From Flaccisagitta enflata (taxonomy: Eukaryota), in assembly GCA_965153355.1 (NCBI GenBank), contig OZ231126.1, positions 23,188,001 through 23,252,000 on the forward strand: DNA of 64,000 nucleotides, read 5' to 3'. Below the pieces are notes generated by a model. It was given only the letters and a program-made list of their open reading frames with translations. It did not search any database and was not told the DNA's origin. Position 1 is the first letter of the stretch; each line of letters begins with the position of its first letter. Below, one piece after another: positions 5,385 to 57,434 of this stretch. The position numbers and the translations under genes were made by a program.

Positions 5385-6962
<1,578 letters not shown>

Positions 6963-7359
6963 TTTGTTTCAAATTCAGCCTCTGCAATTGAATGTTTGAG
7001 ACCTTGACGGCACAGTTATACTTTTGTACACTCATTCAATTTTATTAGAGCGTCGTTTTTTGAGCAAGCTTTCCAGGTTCTTAATGTTTTACTATCTTTA
7101 ACGTTTAAATGTTTATTAAACATTTTTAATCTATATCTTTGGTAAATGTACTTTACAAAGAGCAATATTATTAAAGAAAATTATGTATCAGTTTATCTAT
7201 CAGTATATGTATCAATATATATATATTGAAACTGATAATGTAGTAAATTGATAGATACAGTGAATGAATATCATTGTCGATTAAATATCATAAAACAAAA
7301 ATCAATATATATTTTTTCTAAACCTGCCAATGTTTTTAGTATTTTCTTCAATTTTTAAT

Positions 7360-42797: not shown

Positions 42798-43679
42798 ATA
42801 TAAAGCCTAAAATACTCCATTATTAGTCGCGTGCATGCGACTCTACAACCCGCTTTGTCCGTAGGTCGGTCTGTCGGTTGGTCGGTTGGTCGGTTGGTCC
42901 GTCACACTTTACTTTTTTTTATGATTTTATTTCTTTGACCTCACTGCTCCTGCCCAAATGGTCTGGTGACCTCAAATATGGCCGCTGCCCACCTGCACGC
43001 GACTTCGGTAGCCGTGTATCCGGCCTTGTTTTTTTTCAGATTTGTCTATTATTTTTTTCCATATATTATAGATAATTACTCAGATTTTGTCCCAATGAAT
43101 TAGGGATACATTTTTTTTTAGCAATAACGTACAGTAGATGTCGTCTATACTTGGAAATACGGGGGAATTCATTACAGGAAGACAAATTTACATAAAAGAC
43201 TGAATTTTGGAATTTAGACTTATAAAAGCATGCTTTGTTTCATGTTGCCCATGGGTGTTGGTTGCTTGGAAACACATTTTCATGTATTTACGCTAAAGTA
43301 TCAATATTTTGAGAAATTCTTTTAGGGAACATCGTTTTAAATAAAATTTGCCACAACTTTCCTACAGTATGTTCTGTAAGAATATTGCTCGTTTAGCCAT
43401 TACTAGGGAGCATAACTATGCGTGACAGCCCTGTGATCTATAGGTCATCAATGATATGACATGTGACAACATTGCTTTATCAAAAAAAATACAGAAGAAA
43501 ATCATTCTAACGAACACGCTTCTTACGTAATTCCGCCTCTTACGAATATCTTTGAAAGTCCCATCATTCTTTTCTCATATTGTTTGTTTAGAAAAATCGC
43601 CTTTAACAAACTGTTACTAATGAAAAATCGCCTGTAACAAAGTATTTTCCAGTGACATGTTACGAATTTTTTCATGGAG

Positions 43680-44176
<497 letters not shown>

Positions 44177-45863
44177 GATGATGATGATATGCTATTTTGT
44201 ACCGCATTACTATTAAGTTGTCTATCTAAATGAACAAAACTATTCTGATGGTTGTTTAATGTTTATGCTACTATATCACTAGCAATTGTTTTTCTATGGC
44301 TACAGCGAAATTCGCCTGTAACGAAAATATATCAGGTTCCCTTGGGCTTCGTTAGAAAGGTTTTTAACTGTACATAAAAACAAAGGATGATAGTCTTGGG
44401 AACTCTCAATGGCGCTTAATCCGGACCCCTCACAACTGTTCTTTATCAATAAAAACATTACTATAAAAACCAAAACCATGGTAAAAACCATATTAACCAC
44501 ACTTAGTTGTTATCCATACCATGCAGAGGTAGGGGATCGGTGAGGCGCTGGATTAGGAGGCGCTGGATTCCAGGCGCTGGATTCCGAGGCGAAGGATTCG
44601 AGGCGAATTCATCGGTTTACCAGACAAGGGGTAGGGGTGAGTTTAGGAGTAGGGGTGAGTTTAGGGGTAGGGGTGAGTTTAGGTTATGTCAAATACAAAA
44701 TAAAAAAAAAAAACATAAAAGTTTACCCATGTTTTCTCTGTTGCTAAGCAACAATGTTTTTAAGAAACATAGAACAGTGTTTTATCGTTAGACGCATAGT
44801 ACCAAGGCAGCTGGGTTTCCTACGATTCTAAGAATCGTAGGAATCTGGGTTAGGAAGCTAGGTTTCCTAACCAATTTCATAATAGGAAAATGAGTTTTTT
44901 TCAGTTTATCCTTAGAGGCGCTGCTTCATTTTATCTCATTTCTTGGGTGATCACTAACAATGGGACGACATCGTGATACCATAAAAGAATAGCATCGCCA
45001 CTCTGCTGTAAATAGATTAAAAATGTGAATGAAAAAATCCTACCTACATTTCTTACTAGGTTTTCCAGGAAAACGTTGCTTATGTTTCTTAGAATTCTAG
45101 GTTTCCGAGGATTTACAATATTAGCAAGAATGGTAATTTTTTCGTCTTCGTACATTTGTTGCTCTTTTTATTGGTTGACTCGCTTTTTTGTTAAACAAGG
45201 CCATCGCATTACAAGTCGCGTGCGGTTTTGAAGACTAAAAGACTAAAAGACCTTAAGACCAAAAGATAAAACAACAAAAAACAGGAGCAGTAATGCAAAA
45301 AACGCCCAAAAACGCCGAAAAAAGCTAACGGCGACCAACCGACAGACAGACCGACCGACCAACATAGCGGTTCATAGAGTCGCGTAGCACGCGACTAAAA
45401 AGATTTCCATTTTCACTGACATTGTAAAACTTGGAAAACCTAGAATTCTTAGAAACCTACAGTACCTTCCGAGCAAACCCGGCTAAAACTGGAGGATTGA
45501 TTTTTTTTACTTTAATTTCATTTCCCAAACTTCATTTTTTGTATCTGACTTAATTAAAAGATACTTAATTCCTTGAACATATTTGGCTGTCAGAAAAAAT
45601 AACCCATGAAATCAAAGTGCATGAAGACATCAGTCAGCGACTGCTTATTGATCGTGTATCCGGCCTTGTTTGTTTTCAGTTGCGTGTATGACACACTGCG
45701 TCAGTTGGTTGGTTTGTCCGTCTGTTAGTTGATTGGCATAGTTGTTATTTTCATATTTTGGTGAGAAGTTTTAACATTTCTGCCCCAGCTTATGCACTCC
45801 TCACTATGGGTTGACCTGGTGCGGCCTTATCATTATTTCTTTTTCTTTTTCTTTTTTTTTCTT

Positions 45864-46236
<373 letters not shown>

Positions 46237-46706
46237 CTTCCCCACGTCTATACTCTGTTTGTTTCCCAAAAAAGAATCTGCAAAATTCTTTTTGAGTGTT
46301 TTCGCGTGAAAGATAAAAACATGACCCTGTTCTACATTCACTAGAGATCACAGCTTTGTTCTTGGAAATGCAAAATTCGACTCGTAGGGGAAGTCTTAGA
46401 ATTTTACGTCCATGAAAAATATTATCAAAAGCTTTCACTATTGATCTTTTTTCTGCTGTAAGGCCAAAACAAGCGGAATAAAACCTAATGATGCTCAGGG
46501 TTCCAACTGATGAAGATTTAAAGGGGGTTTTGTGTTTGAGTAACTTAAGATGATACAATACATCTAAATTCTCTGATTTCTCGGAACATGCAAATTGGCT
46601 TTGCAACCAGAGGGACGTACATATTTCTAGGCTTTTTTTGCTTTTTGGCTGGGAGTAAATGCTAATGAACGTAAGTAGTCAAACCGTAGGTCTATGGCAA
46701 CTCCTA

Positions 46707-47293
46707 CACGCCACGGGGGAGGCTTTCATAGGTCAAGAAAAATTCTCGGTCATAATAGAGAGTGGTTTGGGCCTCAGGATGGTTTACTTTATCACTTTAT
46801 ACCAAAACAAAAATTTTTTTACTTCAAAAATTTTTTTTAAAATGCCGTAAAATGCCATAAAAAGCCGTAAAAGTGGCATTTTTGACAGTTTTTTTTGTCT
46901 GAAACCGCCGCTAAGGTAAAAAAATAGGCAAACAATGATTATCTGGCACTAAGACACATTCATGCATAAATACAGGCCAACCCGTCATCATTTAGTATCA
47001 TTTTGTGCCATAAAATGCCGTAAAAAAACGTAAAAATGACATTTTTTGATAACGAGTTGGCATGTATTTATGCATGAATATGTTTTAGTGCCAGATAATC
47101 TTGTTTGCCCATTTTTTGACCAAAGTGGCAGTTTTGGACCCAAAAACTGTCAAAAATGCCAATTTTACGGCTTTTTACTGCATTTTATGTTGTTTTGGTA
47201 TGAAGTGATAAAGTAAACCTTCCTAAGGCTAAAACCACTCTCCATAATGACCGAGAATTTTTCTTGACCTATGAAAGCCTCCCCCGTGGCGTG
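46707..47293. mobile_element. Palindromic Transib-like MITE (587 bp), CAC...GTG termini, 5-bp TSD TCCTA
   Basis: cacgccacgggggaggctttcataggtcaagaaaaattctcgg mirrored at the right end; TCCTA at 46702-46706 and 47294-47298. Confidence 0.9.
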
Positions 47294-47859
47294 TCCTATG
47301 ACCGATCATATTGTCTTCGGGTCGATATCATACAAAGAAAATATGATATTACACTCAAGAGGGAGGAAAATGTCGCAACGCTAAATTCTCCCTCCTTTGG
47401 CATTTCCTCAATAGTTTTTTGCTATTTCTTTCTCATTCCTGGACTTGGAATCGGTTCAAGCATGTCAATAGGTACCTAGGCTATTCCCCCACTAGTGAAA
47501 GGGATGAAGGTAACATAACAAAAAAGATTTAAGAGTGTTTTACACCTAAAAACTGGACGAAAATGAAGTTATTTGATCGTCAATACTCCGACATAAGTCA
47601 TTTCAAGCCATTCTAAGTCATTCTAAGTCATTATGTAAGTCTCGCACGCGACTCATAGGTGTCGGCCTTGTTTTTCCTTTTGAAACCGATTCAAATTTTT
47701 CTAAACAATGTAGTTAGGAAAAGTGTACAACTCTTAAGCCTGACCCGCATTATTGTTTTCATATAAGATTATGTAAAAAAGGGTAAAAAACAAATGACTT
47801 GTTTAATATAAAGTTTTTCTTCTGATCAACTAACCCGGGGTTACGTACACGGCCTTGCT

Positions 47860-47952
<93 letters not shown>

Positions 47953-48753
47953 ACAAATGCGTTTTGACATTTTTTCAAACACACACGCACTTACACTCTA
48001 TAACCCACTTTTTAGCTTTTTCAACCAAAGGACTGACCAACGGAGCGACGAACCGATGCATGGCCTGAAGTGCGGACTAAGCCGCCCATAGTTTCGTGTC
48101 CGCAACTGAAAAGAAAAACTCAGTGTTTTGACTGCTTTTAGACGCTGGCTAAGCGACTCTTAAATAGGATGAACGCCTTAATCTGTCAGTCCGTCCATGA
48201 CGTGAAAATTTGGCTGACGCAAAATTGGCGGGAATGGGGATTTCTGAGTATTATTGCCTCTGCCCTCTACTGACCCCCACCCCCCCCCACCTACTCAAAT
48301 ACTGCCCCCTGCCCCGGCAATTCTGCCCCTACTAATCGCCAGCGACTATTTAGCGGCCGTGTATCCAGCCTTGTTCTTCTGTTGTAAGCTTTCTGATACT
48401 GGACAAGACAACTCTTACCATACATGCTTCATGTTTGTAAACACCATTGAGAGCTCCAAAGCCTCACATCCTTAAGCTATGTAGTTTGGGTTTGAGTAGT
48501 TACGTTGTCCAACTTTCATGCTCGTGCTCTTGCTCTCATACAGGTTTTCGAGAGACATGACATTTGTTTTGCAGTTCTTATTTCTTCCATAAGGTGGAGA
48601 CTAAGCTCTGTCTCTGAGTTCTTTTGTTTTCTTACATTTGGAAAATATATTTGGAAAAGAGTACATTTACACGGCCTATTCTACATGCTCATGAAAATAT
48701 CTTCTCATTATCTCTCTCAGAGAAAAAAGAGATATGAAAATCGCACGTATCTA

Positions 48754-48772
48754 ATGTCGCTGAGTGTTGCAG
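48754..48772 (+). CDS. Candidate upstream coding exon of the lectin gene (MSLSVA-, phase-1 donor); true start uncertain
   Basis: GCA G|gtttgt donor at 48773 gives a 66-bp GT-AG intron to 48838 in the required phase. Upstream acceptor tctctctcag ends at 48720. A second ATG at 48734 (MKIARI*) is out of frame. Confidence 0.4.
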
Positions 48773-48838
48773 GTTTGTTATCCAAGTGCCATATACAGAT
48801 TGCAACTCTCTAGCGTTAATTAACTTCTCGCTCTCCAG

Positions 48839-49114
48839 CCAAAGCGCCGCCTCCTCTCGACGTAATCGCTCTGCTTACAAAATTCATCAATGAGACGAGA
48901 GCCAACGACATGAAGCACGCGGCTGACATCGCCAAACTCTCCACGATGACCAAGCTCCAAAACAAGAAGTTTTCAGCAATTCAAGGAACTATTTCAAAGA
49001 ACGCGGGGAAGATTTCGTCAAATGCGGCGAAGATATCATCAAATACGAGGAGTATTTCGTCCGTCAGCGGAAAAGCTAAGAGGAACACAGACGACATCGC
49101 ACAGATAAAAAAAG
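48839..49114 (+). CDS. Internal coding exon (phase 1 to 1): coiled-coil stalk of a putative H-type lectin protein, (A)KAPPPLDVIALLTKFINETRANDMKHAADIAKLSTMTKLQNKKFSAIQGTISKNAGKISSNAAKISSNTRSISSVSGKAKRNTDDIAQIKK
   Basis: Acceptor ttctcgctctccag ends at 48838; donor AAG|gttcat at 49115. Open, non-repetitive frame with I-x-x-N heptads. Splices in frame to 52369. Confidence 0.85.
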
Positions 49115-49376
49115 GTTCATATTATTAATCCATATGAAAACATTTGCGGAGGAAGTATAGTTGAGCTTCACAAGAGCGCATGCCAAGGGACTGGGCAAAT
49201 TTATGCCCTACAGAGAAGTTGCTTTATTGCTAATACACAATTTACTGCAGTATCACTTGTGGAACTGCAAATCATATACATTACAGGCAGGTATGCCTTA
49301 AAAGCGGGTGCGCTCTTGCGGTGCTCCACTGCACTGCATTGTAGCTGAATTTATCAAGTCTCGGAACTTTCTTAAA

Positions 49377-52156
49377 TAGTCCCGTCTCTTAAAGGAATAA
49401 AAGAAAAGAACTCGGCGTTTTTGGGGCAAAGTGTGAAAATTTGCATACAGGGTCAGTTTTTTGTACTGAACAAGACTAGATGGGGTACACGTCTGATTTT
49501 TAAGTGTAACCCATTCAAAAACGCGTTTTTTCTTCAAAAAAACACTTTGAAGAGGCGCTGACGCCAAACGCATCGACAGATGACTATAAAATTTTAGGTG
49601 AAGAAAAATATGCCTTTTTTCTACTTGCATGCAAAATTTCAGCAAAATCGGTTCAGCAGAAGCGAAGATATTGCCGTTTAAAGTCTAGGCCTATTTTAAA
49701 AAAAAGGGCTATGTTTCAATTTTGGGGTAAAATTGTGTTTTTTTGAGCTGGAAGTCTGAAATTGGTTTCACTCATTTATTTTACCCTCATTTACCTTAAA
49801 AACAAAAAAAATTGAAAGAAATCAATGTTTTTTTCATTTTTTGGGCCAAAAAAACAAAAATTCAACCTTCAAAATTTAGGCCTGATTTTCAGAAAGGGCT
49901 AGTGCAAGGAAAATATGAAAATCACTGATGCCCACTGAGGGAATCTATTGTCATAAAGTGTACCAACTTATTCCCAAACTTTCAGAGGGGTACATAAACC
50001 CAAAAGGACAAAATTTAATTTCAAAGAATTTAAAAAAAACGACCCAAAATTTCGCATTTTTAAACCCCCAGGGACATTTGGTAACGCTACGGCCAAGCGC
50101 TTCAACCGATTTGCCTAAAATTTTGCATGCAAGTCCCAATATGTTAGGGGCATATCTGAGCCAAATTTCAGCTTACTAATCAAACATTTAATTTTTCCAT
50201 ATATCAAAAAGGGTAAAAAAATGCTGAATTTTGATATTTTTGCTGTAGACTTTGAAATGATTTTTTGCCTTTTCGGGTTAATGTACCCCTCTGAAAGTTT
50301 GGGAATAAGTTGGTACACTTTATGACAATAGATTCCCCGAGTGGGCGCCAATGATTTTAATATTTTCTTTGCACTAGCCCTTTTTGAAAATCAGGCCAAA
50401 ATTTTGAGACCCAATTTTGTGTTTTTTTTTGCCATAAAATGGAAAAAACATGGGATTTTTTCAAATTGTTTTTGTTTTTAGAGTAAATTAGGGTAATATA
50501 CGCAATTGAAATCAATTTCAGACTTCCAGCTCAAAAAAACACAATTTTACCCCAAAATTGAAACATAACCCTTTTTTTGAAAATAGGCCTAAACTTTAAA
50601 TGACAATATCTTCGCTTCTAGTGAACCGATTTTGCTGAAATTTTGCATGCAAGTAGAAATAGTCGCAAAAGCGTTACATGGTCAGCGGTACCCGATGCCC
50701 CTAAGTTAGTGTATGTGAGAATGAGATTATGAGAGGGGCAGCGGCCCCGGAGGGGCCGATGACCTATGATTCCACATAGGGCAATTTTCTCCGGTTTGAA
50801 AAGCTAGGTTTTGGGGTCTGAAAGGGCTTGATTTGGGGTCTGGGAGGCCTGATTTGGGGTCTAAAAGGCCTGATATGGATCTGAGAGGCCTGATTTGGGT
50901 CTGAGAGGCCCGATTTGGGGTCTCAGCGGTCTGATTTGGGGTCTGAAAGGGCCTGATTTAGGGTCTGAGTTTCTTGATTTGGGGTCTGAAATGCTTAATT
51001 TGGGGTCTGAGAGGCCTGATTTGGGGTCTGAGAGGCCTGATTTAGGATCTGAGAGGCCTGATTTAGGGTCTGGGAGGCCTTATATTGGGCCTGAGAGGTC
51101 TGATTTGGGGTCAGAAAGGTCTGTTTTGGGGTCTGGGAGGCCTTATTTGGGTTCAACTAGTCATCCAAGGATCGCACATGGTCAGCGGTACCCGATGCCC
51201 TGCTAGGAGTGATCAGCTGAAGAAGTATAGTGAGAGCAGGGCAGCGGCCCCAAAGGGCCGATGTCCTGTAGGACACAGGGGTGAATTTCCAGACGTCCTT
51301 AGAAGGCACATTAAGGGGCTGACATGCTTGATTTTGAGCCTGACAAGGCTGATTTAGGGTATTAGAGAGCTAATTTTGGAGCTGAAAGGGCTGATTTTGG
51401 GCCTGAGAGGACTGATTTTGGGCCTGAGAGAGCTGATTTTGGGCTTGAGAGGGCTGATTTTGGGCTTGAGAGGGCTGATTTGGGGCTAATTTGGAGCTAA
51501 TTTTGGAGCTGAAAGAGCTGATTTTGGGCCTGAGAGGGCTGATTTTGAGTCTGAGAGGGCTGATTTTGGGCTTGAGAGGGCTGATTTTGGGCTTGAGAGG
51601 GCTGATTTTGGGCCTGAGAGGGCTGATTTTGGGCTTGAGAGGGCTGATTTTGGGCTTGAGAGGGCTGATTTGGGGTCTGAGAGGGGCCTCGGGGGGGGGG
51701 GACGTACGTACGGACGTACGGACGTACGGACGTACATACGGACGTCTGGAAATTCACCCCTGTGTCCTACAGGACATCGGCCCTTTGGGGCCGCTGCCCA
51801 AAAAGGCTTCATTTGCAGTCTGGGAAGCTTGTTTTGAGGCTTCGGGGGGGGGGACGTACGGAAACCGGAGAAAATTGCCCTATGTGGAATCATAGGTCAT
51901 CGGCCCCTCCGGGGCCGCTGCCCAAAAAGGTATATTTTTCTTCACCTAAAATTTTAGAGTCATCCGCCAATTGGTTTGGCGTCAGCGCCATTTCAAAGTG
52001 TTTTTTGGGCAAAAAAACGCGTTTTTGAAAGGGGTATACCAAAAAATCAGAAGTGTACCCCTTCTAGTCTTGTTCAGCACAAAAAACTGACCCTGTATGC
52101 AAATTTTCACGCTTTGCCCCAAAAACGCTGAGTCCTTTTCCTTAAATCCTAGACTA
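49377..52156. mobile_element. Long-TIR foldback element (TAGTC...GACTA, 4-bp TSD TAAA; consistent with Academ-type) in lectin intron; ~1.5 kb without nested HINEs
   Basis: Left arm 49377-~50030 mirrors 50250-50657 plus 51924-52156; TAAA at 49373-49376 and 52157-52160. Confidence 0.8.
50658..51928 (-). mobile_element. Young HINE-G element with perfect 62-bp subTIRs (50736-50797 / 51862-51923), hosting a second HINE-G (51155-51804; perfect 60-bp subTIRs 51239-51298 / 51740-51799); both carry 21-bp arrays
   Basis: Inverted pairs checked base by base; asymmetric placement (one terminal next to an A-run, one ~80 bp internal). Confidence 0.92.
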
Positions 52157-52194
52157 TAAAGATTTAATGACTAATCTCTCATCATCAACTTTCC

Positions 52195-52365
52195 TTTTTA
52201 GTTGCGGACACGCAACTCTATAAGAGCCTTTGTCCGTCCGTCCGTCCGTCCGTCCGTCCATCGGTTGGTCGGTCCGTTGGTGAGCACGAGTCGAAAAGTG
52301 TGAAAATGCGCATTTCCGCCCCTGCCCACCCGTCCGCAACTGATGGCCGTGTATCCGGCCTTGTT
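52195..52365 (+). mobile_element. HINE-B2 (~170 bp) directly upstream of the splice acceptor; near-identical copy at 57218-57391
   Basis: ttttagttgcggacacgcaactct...gtccgcaactgatggccgtgtatccggccttgtt. Confidence 0.92.
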
Positions 52366-52368
52366 CAG

Positions 52369-52453
52369 ATGCAATAAGCTGCATCTCCTCGTCAAATACG
52401 TTTGATTTTAAGAAAAGTGCTTGGGGAGTCGACCAAACCGTCAACTTTGCAAG
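52369..52453 (+). CDS. Internal coding exon (85 bp, phase 1 to 2): start of H-type lectin-like domain, (D)AISCISSSNTFDFKKSAWGVDQTVNFA(R)
   Basis: Acceptor ccttgttcag ends at 52368; donor AAG|gtacat at 52454. Phases match both neighbouring exons exactly and give the V-x-F-x-x-x-F-x-x-x-P pattern across the junction. Confidence 0.85.
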
Positions 52454-52469
52454 GTACATGTGGCCTAGC

Positions 52470-53322
52470 CTGTCATCAGGGTTTCTCTCGAAAATTTGTC
52501 TACATCATTTGCAATGGTCACTCTGGGTTTTTGAGCATTTTTGCGTTGGTCATGGATATACAAATCAACAAGTGACGCAAGGTCACAATATAGTTGCGGA
52601 CAGGTAGGCAGGGGCAGCCAACCCCCATCCACGCCCAACGCCCTACCCAACCCCCCTTCCAACACAGACATATACACAAAAAACTTCTAAAACACTCGTT
52701 TTCCCACTTTTTGACTCGTGCTCACGGACAGACCAACGGACCAACGGACCAATGGACAGATGGACAATGCCGCTTATAGAGTTGCGTGTCCGCAACTAAA
52801 AACTACCCTTTGGAAAATCATCCCTAGAATATCTTTTGAAAAGAAAAGAGAAATACATAATTTTTAGCTTGATTTTGCGTAATGAATTATCCAGGTTGGA
52901 TTTATCCATTTTTTGACAGCATATTGTTAATCCTGATGCGATTCTCTTTCATTTGATAGGTCGTACCGTATGGTCTTGATAAGAAATAAATTTTTCATAT
53001 TTTAGGCCAATTTTTGTGACAGTGGCATGGAAAATGAAAATGTTATTTACTTTTAATGCCCTATAGCGCGACCTATCAAATGAAAGGGATTTGCATCAGG
53101 ATTAACAACATACACTGTCATACAGTCTCAAAATGAGTAAAACCAACCTGTAAAACACTTGACGAAAAATGAGGCTGAATATTATGAATCTATCACTTTT
53201 GTTTTCAAAAACCGCTCTAGGGATGATTTCCCACTGGATAGTTTTTGATTTTTACACCCATGACCTACACAAAAATGCAAAAACAGTTACATCATTCCTG
53301 TCTTAAATCCTTTGTCTGACAG
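52470..53322. mobile_element. Degenerate palindromic MITE filling the last lectin intron, with a HINE (52567-52802, - strand) in its left arm
   Basis: tgttaatcctgatgc...tttcatttgataggtcg mirrored by cgacctatcaaatgaaa...gcatcaggattaaca; aaatcatccctaga / tctagggatgattt. Confidence 0.8.
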
Positions 53323-53405
53323 CAGTGAATATGCAAAACGGACCTCGAATATTTAAGCATCTACATTACGACTCAAAATTTGCCCATTTATCAATTTGCC
53401 CACAG

Positions 53406-53595
53406 AAATTTCCGCTCCACACCTGCAATGACTTACGGTATTAGGATCGCTTGGAATGATTGCGACAGTGCCCCCGCTTATTGGATCAGTGCCGATTCTC
53501 TCAACACGAAAGGCTTCAAACCGAAATTTTTTATAAAAAGCACATGCTGGGGTGTTCAAATAACGATTAGTTACATGGCGTGTGGTAGAATTTGA
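53406..53595 (+). CDS. Terminal coding exon: C-terminal part of H-type lectin-like domain, NFRSTPAMTYGIRIAWNDCDSAPAYWISADSLNTKGFKPKFFIKSTCWGVQITISYMACGRI*
   Basis: Acceptor tttgcccacag ends at 53405; TGA at 53593-53595. F-x-x-x-P-x-M-x-x-G, N-T-K-G-F and I-S-Y-M-A-C-G resemble H-type lectin motifs (recognised by eye, not by HMM). Confidence 0.82.
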
Positions 53596-53701
53596 TATTT
53601 CTATGAGAGAAAGTGCGAAACTTTTATGATAGGCGATTATCCGTTTATTTTCTGCGCTGACTTTTTCTGGAATATTTTAGTGGGTCTCTAGGTACTAAGA
53701 A

Positions 53702-53707
53702 AATAAA
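53702..53707 (+). promoter_or_regulatory. Probable polyadenylation signal of the lectin gene
   Basis: AATAAA about 107 bp downstream of the stop codon. Confidence 0.45.
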
Positions 53708-54858
53708 ATCGTTTTTCAAGTGTCCTTAAGTATTTTTTGGTCTCAATCCTCAGGTGTACTACTTATTGATCTAAGCAATTTAACTGAAAAAAGAAAAGAA
53801 CCGAAAAAGTCAGCTTTTGATTTACTTTTTTTTAGTAATTTCATACTCATGCTTTAAGAAAGTTCTCATGCTGTCAAAATAAGATTGAATACAATTTCTG
53901 AAGCGAAACCTGTCATCTTGTTCATCTGTTCCAGGAAATAATGAGCAAAATTGTCTAGCCTTTCTGGTCAAATATACTCTTTGTCCAACACCAATGACCG
54001 ACATGCTTAAAAAAAATAAAAAACAACAAAATCTCTACTTATGTTAGTGAGAGAAATGTTCAAGCTATTTGTGCAATGAATCAGTTCATCAAACCGTAAA
54101 TTCTGACTTCAAGAAGTGGGGGGGGGGGGGGGGTCAAAGGGGATGTAGTAGCGTTTCGGAAGACCCCGAGAAAACTTTGTCTTGGTTTTTAGTCCCATGC
54201 TACGCGACTCTACACCCCGTTTTATCCGCCCATCCGTTGGTGTATCTATCTGTCTGTCTGTCGGTCGGTCACATTTTAGATTTTTTACGTTTTTAGTCAC
54301 GGACTCTAGAACTTGCTGTGTCGATCGGTCAGTCGGTCGGTTGGCTAGTAGGGCTGTCAGTAGCCAAAACAAAATGTGAGCATTTCTTTCGCTATTCTGT
54401 CCGCGACTGGTTATTCTTTGACCTCCTTGCTCTTGTCCAACGGGTTTAGTGACCTCAAATATGGCCCCTGCCCACCTGCATGCGACTGGGGTAGCCATGT
54501 ATCTGGCCTCGTTAGTAACGAGTAGACTCCTTTTCCATCATTCCTTCAAGACCTTGCTTTATAACGCCGCACATGCAGCTGCGTCGTGGCGCGATGGTAA
54601 AAACGGCGCCGGCAGTGAGTCGCAACGACGCCGCGGCGTAAATGGCGCCGACTGACTGACGACGCCGACCGAGGACATTGACGCCGACTTTTATTGGCGC
54701 CAAACTACCGTAAATCCAAAGACGCGCGGCCAAATTGTTGCTCAGCCGGCGTCGAGTCCACTTCGACTTGGTGACAGGCAAAAAAGGGGTTTGAGGGTGG
54801 TTGGATGGATGGACAATATCTATTTGGATATATGATTACCCACTCACCATTTCAATAA

Positions 54859-55496: not shown

Positions 55497-55688
<192 letters not shown>

Positions 55689-55999
55689 GAAAGGTCGTCG
55701 GGTTGCCCTTTTTTAGTCGCGTGCTACGCGACTCTACACCCCGCTTTGTCGGTCCGTCCGTCGGTCCGTCGGTCCGTCCGTCGGTCCGTCCGTCACACTT
55801 TACTTTTTTTGGTTTTTGCGTTCTTTGGCCTCACTGCTCGCGCCCAAATGATGAAGTGACCTCAAATATGGCCCCTGCCCACCCGCACGCGACTGGGGAA
55901 GCCGAGTATCCAGCCTTGTTTCGCTGTCAGTCTATTTGCTTGTATGCTTTGCTATACATTTGGAGTTTTGGCTCATTTTCTTTTTGTTCACTCATTGAC

Positions 56000-56428: not shown

Positions 56429-57010
56429 TTTTAGGTGCGCCATAGCACCTCTATAACTAGCTCTGTCTGTTGGTTGGTCGGTTGGTCGGTCACGTCTTGC
56501 TCGAGTTGAAAATTTCGAAAAAGAGCAAAAATCACTCAAAATGATTTAGAAATATGCTAGGATGATTCCTAGATGCGCCATAGCACCTCTACAAGAGAAT
56601 CTGTCCGTCTGTCCATCCGTCGGTCACGTTCAAATGAAAAATCGCTGAAAATGTTAAGAATTTATTGAAAACTCATTTTGTTAATCATTGATGATATAAG
56701 TCATTTCATTCACTGAAGTAATCAGCTTCGGTGAGGTCTGATCAAGCTGGGGATAGGTCGGATAGGTCTGGTGATAGGTCGGACATGTCTGATAGAGCTC
56801 AGGATAGGTCTGATAGAGCTTGGGATAGGTCTGATAGAGCTCGGGATAGGGCTGATAGAGCTTGGAATAGGTCTGATAGAGCTAGGGATAGGTCTGATAG
56901 AGCTAGGGATAGGTCTGATAGAGCTAGGGATAGGTCTGATGGAGCTAGGGATAGGTCTAAGAATTAATAACGCCCGGCGCACCGTCTTGGCCCATATATC
57001 CGGCTTTGTT
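56429..57010 (+). mobile_element. HINE-D-type element with 21-bp array GATAGGTCTGATAGAGCTAGG (~56735-56960) and a duplicated 5' hairpin
   Basis: ttttaggtgcgccatagcacctct start, second copy at ~56571; 3' ggcgcacc...ggcccatatatccggctttgtt. Confidence 0.85.
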
Positions 57011-57068
57011 ACTGTCGTTCTCGCTATTTTTTTTCTTTCTTTCTTTCTGTCTTTCTGTCTTTCTCTTT

Positions 57069-57128
<60 letters not shown>

Positions 57129-57176
57129 TCCTACTTTCTTTCTGTCTTTCTTTCTTTCTTTCCTTCTTTCTTTCCT

Positions 57177-57212
<36 letters not shown>

Positions 57213-57434
57213 ACATTCTTTTTAGTTGCGGACACGCAACTCTATAAGAGCCTTTGTCCGTCCATCCGTCCGTCCATCCGTCCATCGGTCTGTCGGTCCG
57301 TTGGTGTGCACGAGTCGAAAAGTGCGAAAACATGCATTTCCGCCCCTGCCCACCCGTCCGCAACTGGTATGGCCGTGTATCCGGCCTTGTTCTTTCTTCC
57401 TTTCTTCCTTTTTGGGCAGTGGCCCCGAAGGGGA

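Follow-up and report, generated by a model that had tools for sequence, protein, structure and literature searches.

The window analysed here is the whole 64,000-nucleotide (nt) stretch of the Flaccisagitta enflata assembly GCA_965153355.1 that runs from position 23,188,001 to 23,252,000 of contig OZ231126.1; coordinates below count from its first letter, on the forward strand. It holds the last three coding exons, separated by spliceosomal introns, of a gene on the forward strand (Table 1). We consider our reading as a whole probable, though well short of certain: a genuine expressed gene, whose product carries an Ile/Asn coiled-coil stalk of ~85 residues directly before a very divergent H-type lectin head of ~90 residues and would form a trimer for recognition or adhesion. 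The surrounding sequence, with a base composition of ~36-53% G+C, is crowded with microsatellites and short interspersed repeats, and the only long open frames in the window are low-complexity ones.

Table 1. The proposed gene, its parts and the repeats in and around it
Feature	Position	Strand	Description and basis
Coding exon 1, internal	48839..49114	+	phase 1 in, 1 out; 91 whole codons of helical stalk; translation
Seven heptads, Ile at a and Asn at d	48970..49114	+	F44 to K91 of the exon 1 peptide; heptad table, periodicity test
21-nt tandem repeat	49003..49061	+	2.8 copies, 73% matches; equals the duplicated heptad unit; Tandem Repeats Finder
Intron 1	49115..52368	+	GT..AG; nested inverted repeats and minisatellite arrays; no RNA contig spans the junction
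Inverted-repeat arm pair, intron 1	49393-49619/51924-52150		
Inverted-repeat arm pair, intron 1	49618-50039/50237-50659		
Inverted-repeat arm pair, intron 1	50736-50797/51862-51923		100% complementary
Inverted-repeat arm pair, intron 1	51239-51301/51737-51799		
Short interspersed repeat	52195..52365	+	stops 3 nt short of exon 2; the acceptor takes its pyrimidine tract from it
Coding exon 2, 85 nt	52369..52453	+	linker and first strand of the head; translation, RNA contig
H-lectin-like domain, start	52428..52453	+	profile positions 20-28; gap-free hmmsearch alignment over the exon 2/3 junction
Intron 2, 952 nt	52454..53405	+	GT..AG; skipped in X1 RNA contig
Inverted copy of the interspersed repeat, downstream of exon 2	~52571..52802	-	inverted-repeat pairs, blastn; left boundary read from the sequence
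Last coding exon (exon 3)	53406..53595	+	62 whole codons and TGA; translation, profile matches, RNA contig
H-lectin-like domain, bulk	exon 3, to 53586	+	profile matches
3′ untranslated region	53596..53725, end approximate	+	AATAAA at 53702-53707; X1 contig collinear to 53637

Joined, the three exons give 551 nt that read as 182 codons and a TGA with zero internal stops. Exon 1 opens with two bases that finish a codon begun upstream; its last base and the first two of exon 2 make up an Asp codon (G/AT), and exons 2 and 3 likewise share an Arg codon (AG/A). The acceptor ahead of exon 1 reads ...ctcgctctccag/CC. Intron 1 extends from AAAAAG/gttcat to ...ccttgttcag/AT and intron 2 from TGCAAG/gtacat to ...tttgcccacag/AA; all four splice sites are canonical, with AAG/gt donors and pyrimidine-rich tracts ahead of cag acceptors. 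The exon 1 donor was not freely chosen, because 49115 is the only GT between 49062 and the stop of the exon 1 frame at 49126-49128. An original prediction, made from the letters of the window and a list of its open reading frames (ORFs), had proposed these three pieces, and we find their translations, GT-AG sites and phases as it gave them; the exon set is real, while the gene it describes is incomplete at the 5′ end, exon 1 being an internal exon. When the joined protein was compared with the window by tblastn, no paralogue was found there, all other hits having E of at least 1.1.

A search of public RNA runs with exon 1 led to two of them: X1, a marine metatranscriptome available as contigs, which contains 0.25 of the sampled exon 1 words, and X2, a poly(A) run of raw reads. 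RNA was mapped to positions 46240-53900 of the window. A 345-nt contig from X1 matches 52367-52451 and then 53404-53637, skipping 952 letters that begin with GT and end with AG (cut +2), which is the 52453/53406 junction. The match starts at 52367, with six letters of the contig ahead of it; since exon 1 and intron 1 both end in AG, a transcript spliced from 49114 to 52369 would match from 52367, as is seen. A second X1 contig, of 275 nt, has a match that runs exactly from the first base of exon 1 to 49061 and is preceded by 51 foreign letters, which occur nowhere in 46240-48838. These foreign letters imply that the acceptor at 48839 is used and that at least one more 5′ exon lies upstream of 46240 or outside the window. 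By eye, the region 47520-47775, where X1 has depth, presents no exon-like feature. The original prediction had asked for spliced reads at both junctions: the second is spliced exactly as proposed in the X1 contig, and support for the first is indirect only. Neither of the outcomes that it had named as refuting it, no spliced reads or no H-lectin-like fold by profile or structure search, came about. In the 3′ untranslated region, at 53637, the X1 contig has extra copies of GATTAT where the window has one.

The H-type lectin fold, as in Helix pomatia agglutinin (HPA) and discoidin, is a six-stranded beta-sandwich. To represent its sequence family we used a profile of 30 domain sequences, taken from the best 30 loci that match PF09458, the Pfam H_lectin family, after a search of 401 genomes of one bacterial phylum (65 with a match, 63 of them above the Pfam cut-off). 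As a positive control, the profile recovers all seven distinct solved H-lectin sequences in the Protein Data Bank (PDB), namely three HPA entries, Helix aspersa agglutinin (HAA), discoidin I, discoidin II and SLL-2, at E from 3e-14 to 3e-11, the next hit having E 0.14. Against it the 91 residues of the joined head (exons 2 and 3) reach 22.2 bits, with a P of 5.7e-9 as a single sequence, and the hmmsearch alignment is gap-free over profile positions 20-88, crossing the exon 2/3 junction without a break. For exon 3 alone the score is 12.2 bits; the 10 bits gained by joining the exons support the junction as well as the homology. None of 5000 shuffles of the head reached the real score (maximum 9.0 bits), and the reversed sequence scores -0.3. 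Among the 757 window ORFs of at least 40 residues, that of exon 3 comes top with 12.8 bits and the next has 4.9. Two bacterial subgroup profiles each match the head when used separately (13.4 and 16.3 bits), hhalign aligns the bacterial alignment with exon 3 over 60 columns (E 7.7e-5, probability 61.8%), and MAFFT independently sets exon 3 in the same register as the profile alignment. Judged by homology, the head belongs with the H-type lectin domains, though as a very divergent member.

The same results bear on the simplest alternative, that these are chance open frames in repeat-rich DNA and that there is no gene. In its favour, the window is full of repeats and low-complexity ORFs; the spliced RNA contig, a profile score that no shuffle attains and an alignment that continues over the splice junction refute this, and we give it almost no chance.

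The second half of the exon 1 peptide is made up of the heptads FSAIQGT, ISKNAGK, ISSNAAK, ISSNTRS, ISSVSGK, AKRNTDD and IAQIKKD, with Ile at a in five of the seven and Asn at d in four, which is the series that the original prediction had read. They belong to a single unbroken heptad register of ~12 heptads, from ~I9 to ~A93, in which the a positions are I, I, D, I, T, F, I, I, I, I, A, I and A and the d positions L, T, H, L, Q, I, N, N, N, V, N, I and C. Polar residues thus hold 7 of 13 d positions as against 2 of 13 a positions. The 3.5-residue hydrophobic period of residues 6-92 was matched by 11 of 5000 shuffles. Four of the stalk heptads derive from the 21-nt tandem repeat. Asn at d is said, in work by Hartmann and others in 2009, to mark or favour trimers. 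The stalk, which pairs Ile at a with Asn at d in one heptad after another, is like the Asn-at-d (N@d) layers of trimeric autotransporter adhesins, and its imbalance of polar residues, d over a, is that of the autotransporter stalks, which are ~45% polar at d and ~5% at a according to PMC13580157. In trimeric coiled coils, as described in PMC12933892, Asn triads hold chloride ions. Unlike trimeric autotransporter adhesins, the gene is eukaryotic and spliced, and it is without an autotransporter anchor.

Searches with exon 1 returned no relative in genomes (397 stretches), and none of the 94 candidates from a word-indexed protein search was one. NCBIfam gave nothing for the exon 1 and exon 3 peptides. 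Pfam, searched with single exons, offered HAUS1 (E 0.051, 13.8 bits against a cut-off of 40), which we took as coiled-coil noise. A metagenome scan with exon 1 (546 stretches) gave one locus, a coiled-coil ORF at 2398-2964 on the forward strand of its contig; 20 of 50 residues are identical to the stalk, the sole gap is exactly seven residues long, and a 12-residue stretch is near-identical to the last heptads of the stalk. We do not call this ORF a phage fibre; its hits in PHROGs are weak and mixed.

Taken together, the joined translation, the heptads, the profile score and the RNA contig confirm what the original prediction had observed, and the profile match, the heptads and the spliced contig support the structural part of its interpretation, a stalk fused to an H-type lectin-like head. 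H-type lectins assemble as homotrimers, their pockets lying at the subunit interfaces (PMC6048534; preprint 10.64898/2026.06.18.733164), and a trimeric stalk directly before such a head therefore fits. In the mechanism that we propose, three chains would zip via the Ile/Asn stalk into a parallel trimer; this would bring the three heads into the arrangement of all solved H-type lectins, with ligand grooves at the subunit interfaces. Such a molecule would act multivalently in recognition or adhesion, in the manner of collectins and of the invertebrate C1q, fibrinogen and C-type lectins that have coiled coils. The product is probably a recognition protein with three arms; its trimeric state, where it resides and its binding of a ligand are what we infer.

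Against this reading of the gene stand several results, given here and in the next three paragraphs together with the alternatives on which they bear. With exons 2 and 3 as single-exon queries, the Pfam H_lectin model (cut-off 24 bits) finds nothing at E up to 10; exon 3 spans ~positions 11-67 of its 67 positions. An exhaustive phmmer search of 1.84 billion representative proteins with exon 3 found only one homologue, P0004, a 143-residue read-through ORF on a 613-nt ENA contig, whose cluster mate P0005 is also a genomic fragment. (In both, two in-frame intron stops and the stop of the gene are read as W on comparison with window 53407-53592, as if the gene caller had used TGA=W.) P0004 was also the one match among the two candidates from a word-indexed search with exon 3. 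No relative turned up in the exon 3 metagenome scan of 223 stretches, and phmmer of exon 3 against PDB sequences gave no hits at E <= 10. AlphaFold's model of exon 3 alone is unusable, with a predicted local distance difference test (pLDDT) score of 54.3; supplied with the bacterial H-lectin alignment, the program gives four strands at a pLDDT of 85.7. Foldseek finds no match to this model in the PDB at E <= 0.001 (best E 1.7). When the model was compared with all 48,161 representative chains, the first four were SLL-2 (Z 5.0, root-mean-square deviation 2.0, 59 residues aligned), HPA (chain 40-99; Z 4.6, 2.1, 59 residues), discoidin I (Z 4.5, 2.9, 62 residues) and the tip of a pyocin fibre (Z 4.5, 2.9, 58 residues), although the VIA Z-scores are under the tool's own safe level. 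Since the input alignment consisted of H-lectins, the match of the modelled fold is not independent evidence; it is consistent with the sequence result and is no independent proof of it.

In the RNA, no X1 contig bridges 49062-49114 to exon 2, the X1 contigs are ~95% identical to the window (11 of 223 and 14 of 234 letters differ), and X2, of which ~6 in 100 was read, has no reads on the exons. The X1 contigs come from another allele, a paralogue or a close species. All 140 placed X2 reads fit partially only, as repeat pieces, and fall solely on conserved repeat pieces of intron 1, so we draw no inference from X2. The divergence of X1 and the silence of X2 on the exons are what would be seen if the window copy were a silent or decaying allele or paralogue and the transcripts came from another copy. 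Two further observations could be read in this way: the interspersed repeat ends just before the exon 2 acceptor, with its inverted copy downstream, and in exon 3 eight codons differ from X1 non-synonymously and three synonymously, a ratio compatible with relaxed constraint. On the other side, all 182 codons are open, the four splice sites and the stop are intact, and the variants include no insertion, deletion or stop. The X1 contig, P0004 and P0005, which are the other versions, all keep the frame; the four non-synonymous and four synonymous codons that differ in exon 1 suggest constraint; and the end of the repeat, besides its pyrimidine tract, offers the exon 2 acceptor a branch-point-like CTGAT motif. 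A silent or decaying copy thus seems to us quite improbable.

According to a preprint (10.64898/2026.06.18.733164), discoidins depend for binding on aromatic residues that are conserved in the ligand pocket of H-lectins (W235 and Y241 of discoidin I), and mutating these reduced or abolished binding. In our alignment the first is the W of 'TW' and the second the Y of 'VY', and HPA shares both; in gap-free alignments the head has K44 and V50 of the exon 3 peptide in their columns, so that it is without the pocket aromatics. Where the bacterial profile has a conserved Arg, the head has Ala. 'Lectin' therefore names a fold here and claims no activity, and the ligand need not be N-acetylgalactosamine (GalNAc) or galactose (Gal). 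The gene and the fold could then be as we describe and the head no carbohydrate binder, serving as a peptide- or protein-binding module or as a trimerisation cap, as in CofB, which keeps the H-lectin fold and the trimer without binding GalNAc and has a peptide in the pocket (PMC6048534). Set against this are a Trp four residues past the expected column, which could line a shifted pocket, and the 12 of 30 bacterial profile members that also lack the pocket Trp, which makes its loss common in the H-lectin family. On balance we think a head of this kind possible, though somewhat unlikely.

The 5′ end bears on where the protein resides. Upstream in the window, six candidates for a signal-peptide exon with a phase-1 donor were found, none of them convincing. 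If the upstream exon were untranslated, translation could start at Met 24 of the exon 1 peptide, whose ATG has G at -3 and A at +4, and the product would be a cytosolic protein like the discoidins, which are cytosolic H-type lectins (preprint 10.64898/2026.06.18.733164), and no secreted molecule of the collectin kind. The frame, however, is already open through the 23 codons from the acceptor to Met 24, the heptad register is already running from ~residue 9, and the bacterial look-alikes described below are membrane-anchored; a cytosolic product is for these reasons unlikely in our view. The 182 residues contain no Gly-X-Y collagen repeats.

Returning to the gene as we read it, exon 3 varies among its versions. 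The X1 contig, P0004 and P0005 share five substitutions there relative to the window (A22S, S28N, A29V, K40R and Q51K), and with four further private ones 9 of the 62 head positions vary among the four versions. Non-synonymous codons between X1 and the window number 8 of 62 in exon 3 and 4 of 74 in exon 1 (Fisher P 0.14). In P0004, changes affect 7 of the 62 exon codons and none of the 78 codons that flank the exon (Fisher P 0.003); the corresponding counts for P0005 are 6 of 62 and 3 of 78 (Fisher P 0.18). Of these comparisons that of P0004 supports a faster-changing head, and those of P0005 and X1 do not. There is a hint here that the head may evolve faster than the stalk or the flanks, and only a hint, since the versions share ancestry and are not independent. 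The variable head positions and the P0004 comparison also hint at a bolder reading: the gene would be the first animal-type case of a head with the H-lectin fold set on an ion-binding, Asn-layered trimeric stalk, and its product a lineage-restricted, polymorphic receptor that has lost the Gal/GalNAc pocket and is diversifying toward a different ligand. We hold out little prospect for this. Were it true, the layout of anchor, coiled coil and H-lectin domain that is shared with bacterial proteins would point to ancient transfer or to convergence.

The repeat that ends ahead of exon 2 is ~170 nt long and has a run of (GTCC)n inside it. At 57219-57391 lies a full copy, with 93.6% identity, which stops at the same point of the repeat, and ~20 partial copies are scattered elsewhere in the window; X1 contigs of the repeat diverge past 52365. 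In intron 1 the inverted-repeat arm pairs (49393-52150) enclose two arrays of a minisatellite of ~21 nt, as seen by eye. Very long microsatellites and low-complexity tracts (CA, GA, AAC/AAT-type and GAAA-type) lie at 1-2500, 5400-7000, 43600-46350, 47860-47950, 55500-55700 and 56700-57200, and these tracts yield most of the long open frames of the window.

What the locus adds is incremental: one more stalk-and-head recognition protein, familiar in design and made from an unusual pair of parts. It adds a coiled-coil-stalked form to the H-type lectins, which a survey of invertebrate lectins, PMC8878817, gives only as a signal peptide with a single domain or as immunoglobulin fusions. We found no description of a coiled-coil H-type lectin in the literature searched, which lay mostly outside subscription journals and supplements and is weak evidence of absence. 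The gene was missed by ORF lists, by Pfam and by a search of 1.8 billion proteins, and once its exons were joined it could still be placed in a known fold family. If the trimer and a ligand are borne out, the collectin design would have been invented independently once more, and the gene would be a eukaryotic test case for Asn-layered coiled coils that hold ions.

The closest known relatives of the head are the solved H-type lectins, that is, the agglutinins of Helix pomatia and Helix aspersa (2CCV, 2CE6, 2CGY, 4Q56), discoidins I and II (2W94, 2VM9) and the coral lectin SLL-2 (3WMP): one profile matches them and the head, in the same register and gap-free. The head keeps the H-lectin landmarks F-x-x-x-F-x-x-x-P, G-F and aromatic-x-A-x-G, and like the H-lectin domain of discoidins it is C-terminal. 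It differs in that its segment ahead of the first conserved strand is short, its identity to the solved proteins in structural alignments is 14-19%, and its partner is a coiled-coil stalk, where the snail and coral lectins have none and the discoidins a discoidin domain.

In size and in the order of its parts, the gene product is like a group of bacterial (Pseudomonadota) proteins that make up 12 of the best 30 loci (L140-L151). Their open frames of 203-355 amino acids encode an N-terminal hydrophobic helix, a coiled coil and a C-terminal H_lectin domain, and PF09458, at the C-terminus, is the only Pfam family above its cut-off in all eight tested; none of the four tested has an NCBIfam name. 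From their sequences they look like uncharacterised membrane-anchored stalked lectins. Their subgroup profile is the one that matches the head slightly better (16.3 against 13.4 bits). They differ from the gene in being bacterial and intron-less with a visible N-terminal anchor, and their coils, by eye, are rich in Leu, Val and Ala and have no Asn-d layers. With 12 of 30 bacterial loci combining a stalk with an H-lectin domain, the layout is not new to biology. CofB, a minor pilin of enterotoxigenic Escherichia coli, likewise forms a trimer whose C-terminal tip has the H-lectin fold, with a pocket that has ceased to bind GalNAc (PMC6048534); it differs in being a pilin without a coiled coil, and the bacterial PF09458 sequence profile misses it.

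Coiled coils take the place of collagen in lophotrochozoan fibrinogen-related, C-type and C1q lectins, according to PMC8878817. The head fold of the gene is different from those of collectins, ficolins and coiled-coil C1q-domain lectins, and a collectin or ficolin is recognised by a signal peptide and a Gly-X-Y stalk, neither of which we found, so that the likeness is one of design only. That design, an oligomerising N-terminal stalk leading to a C-terminal recognition head, is what the predicted protein would have in common with the coiled-coil C1q, fibrinogen-related and C-type lectins and with the collectins and ficolins.

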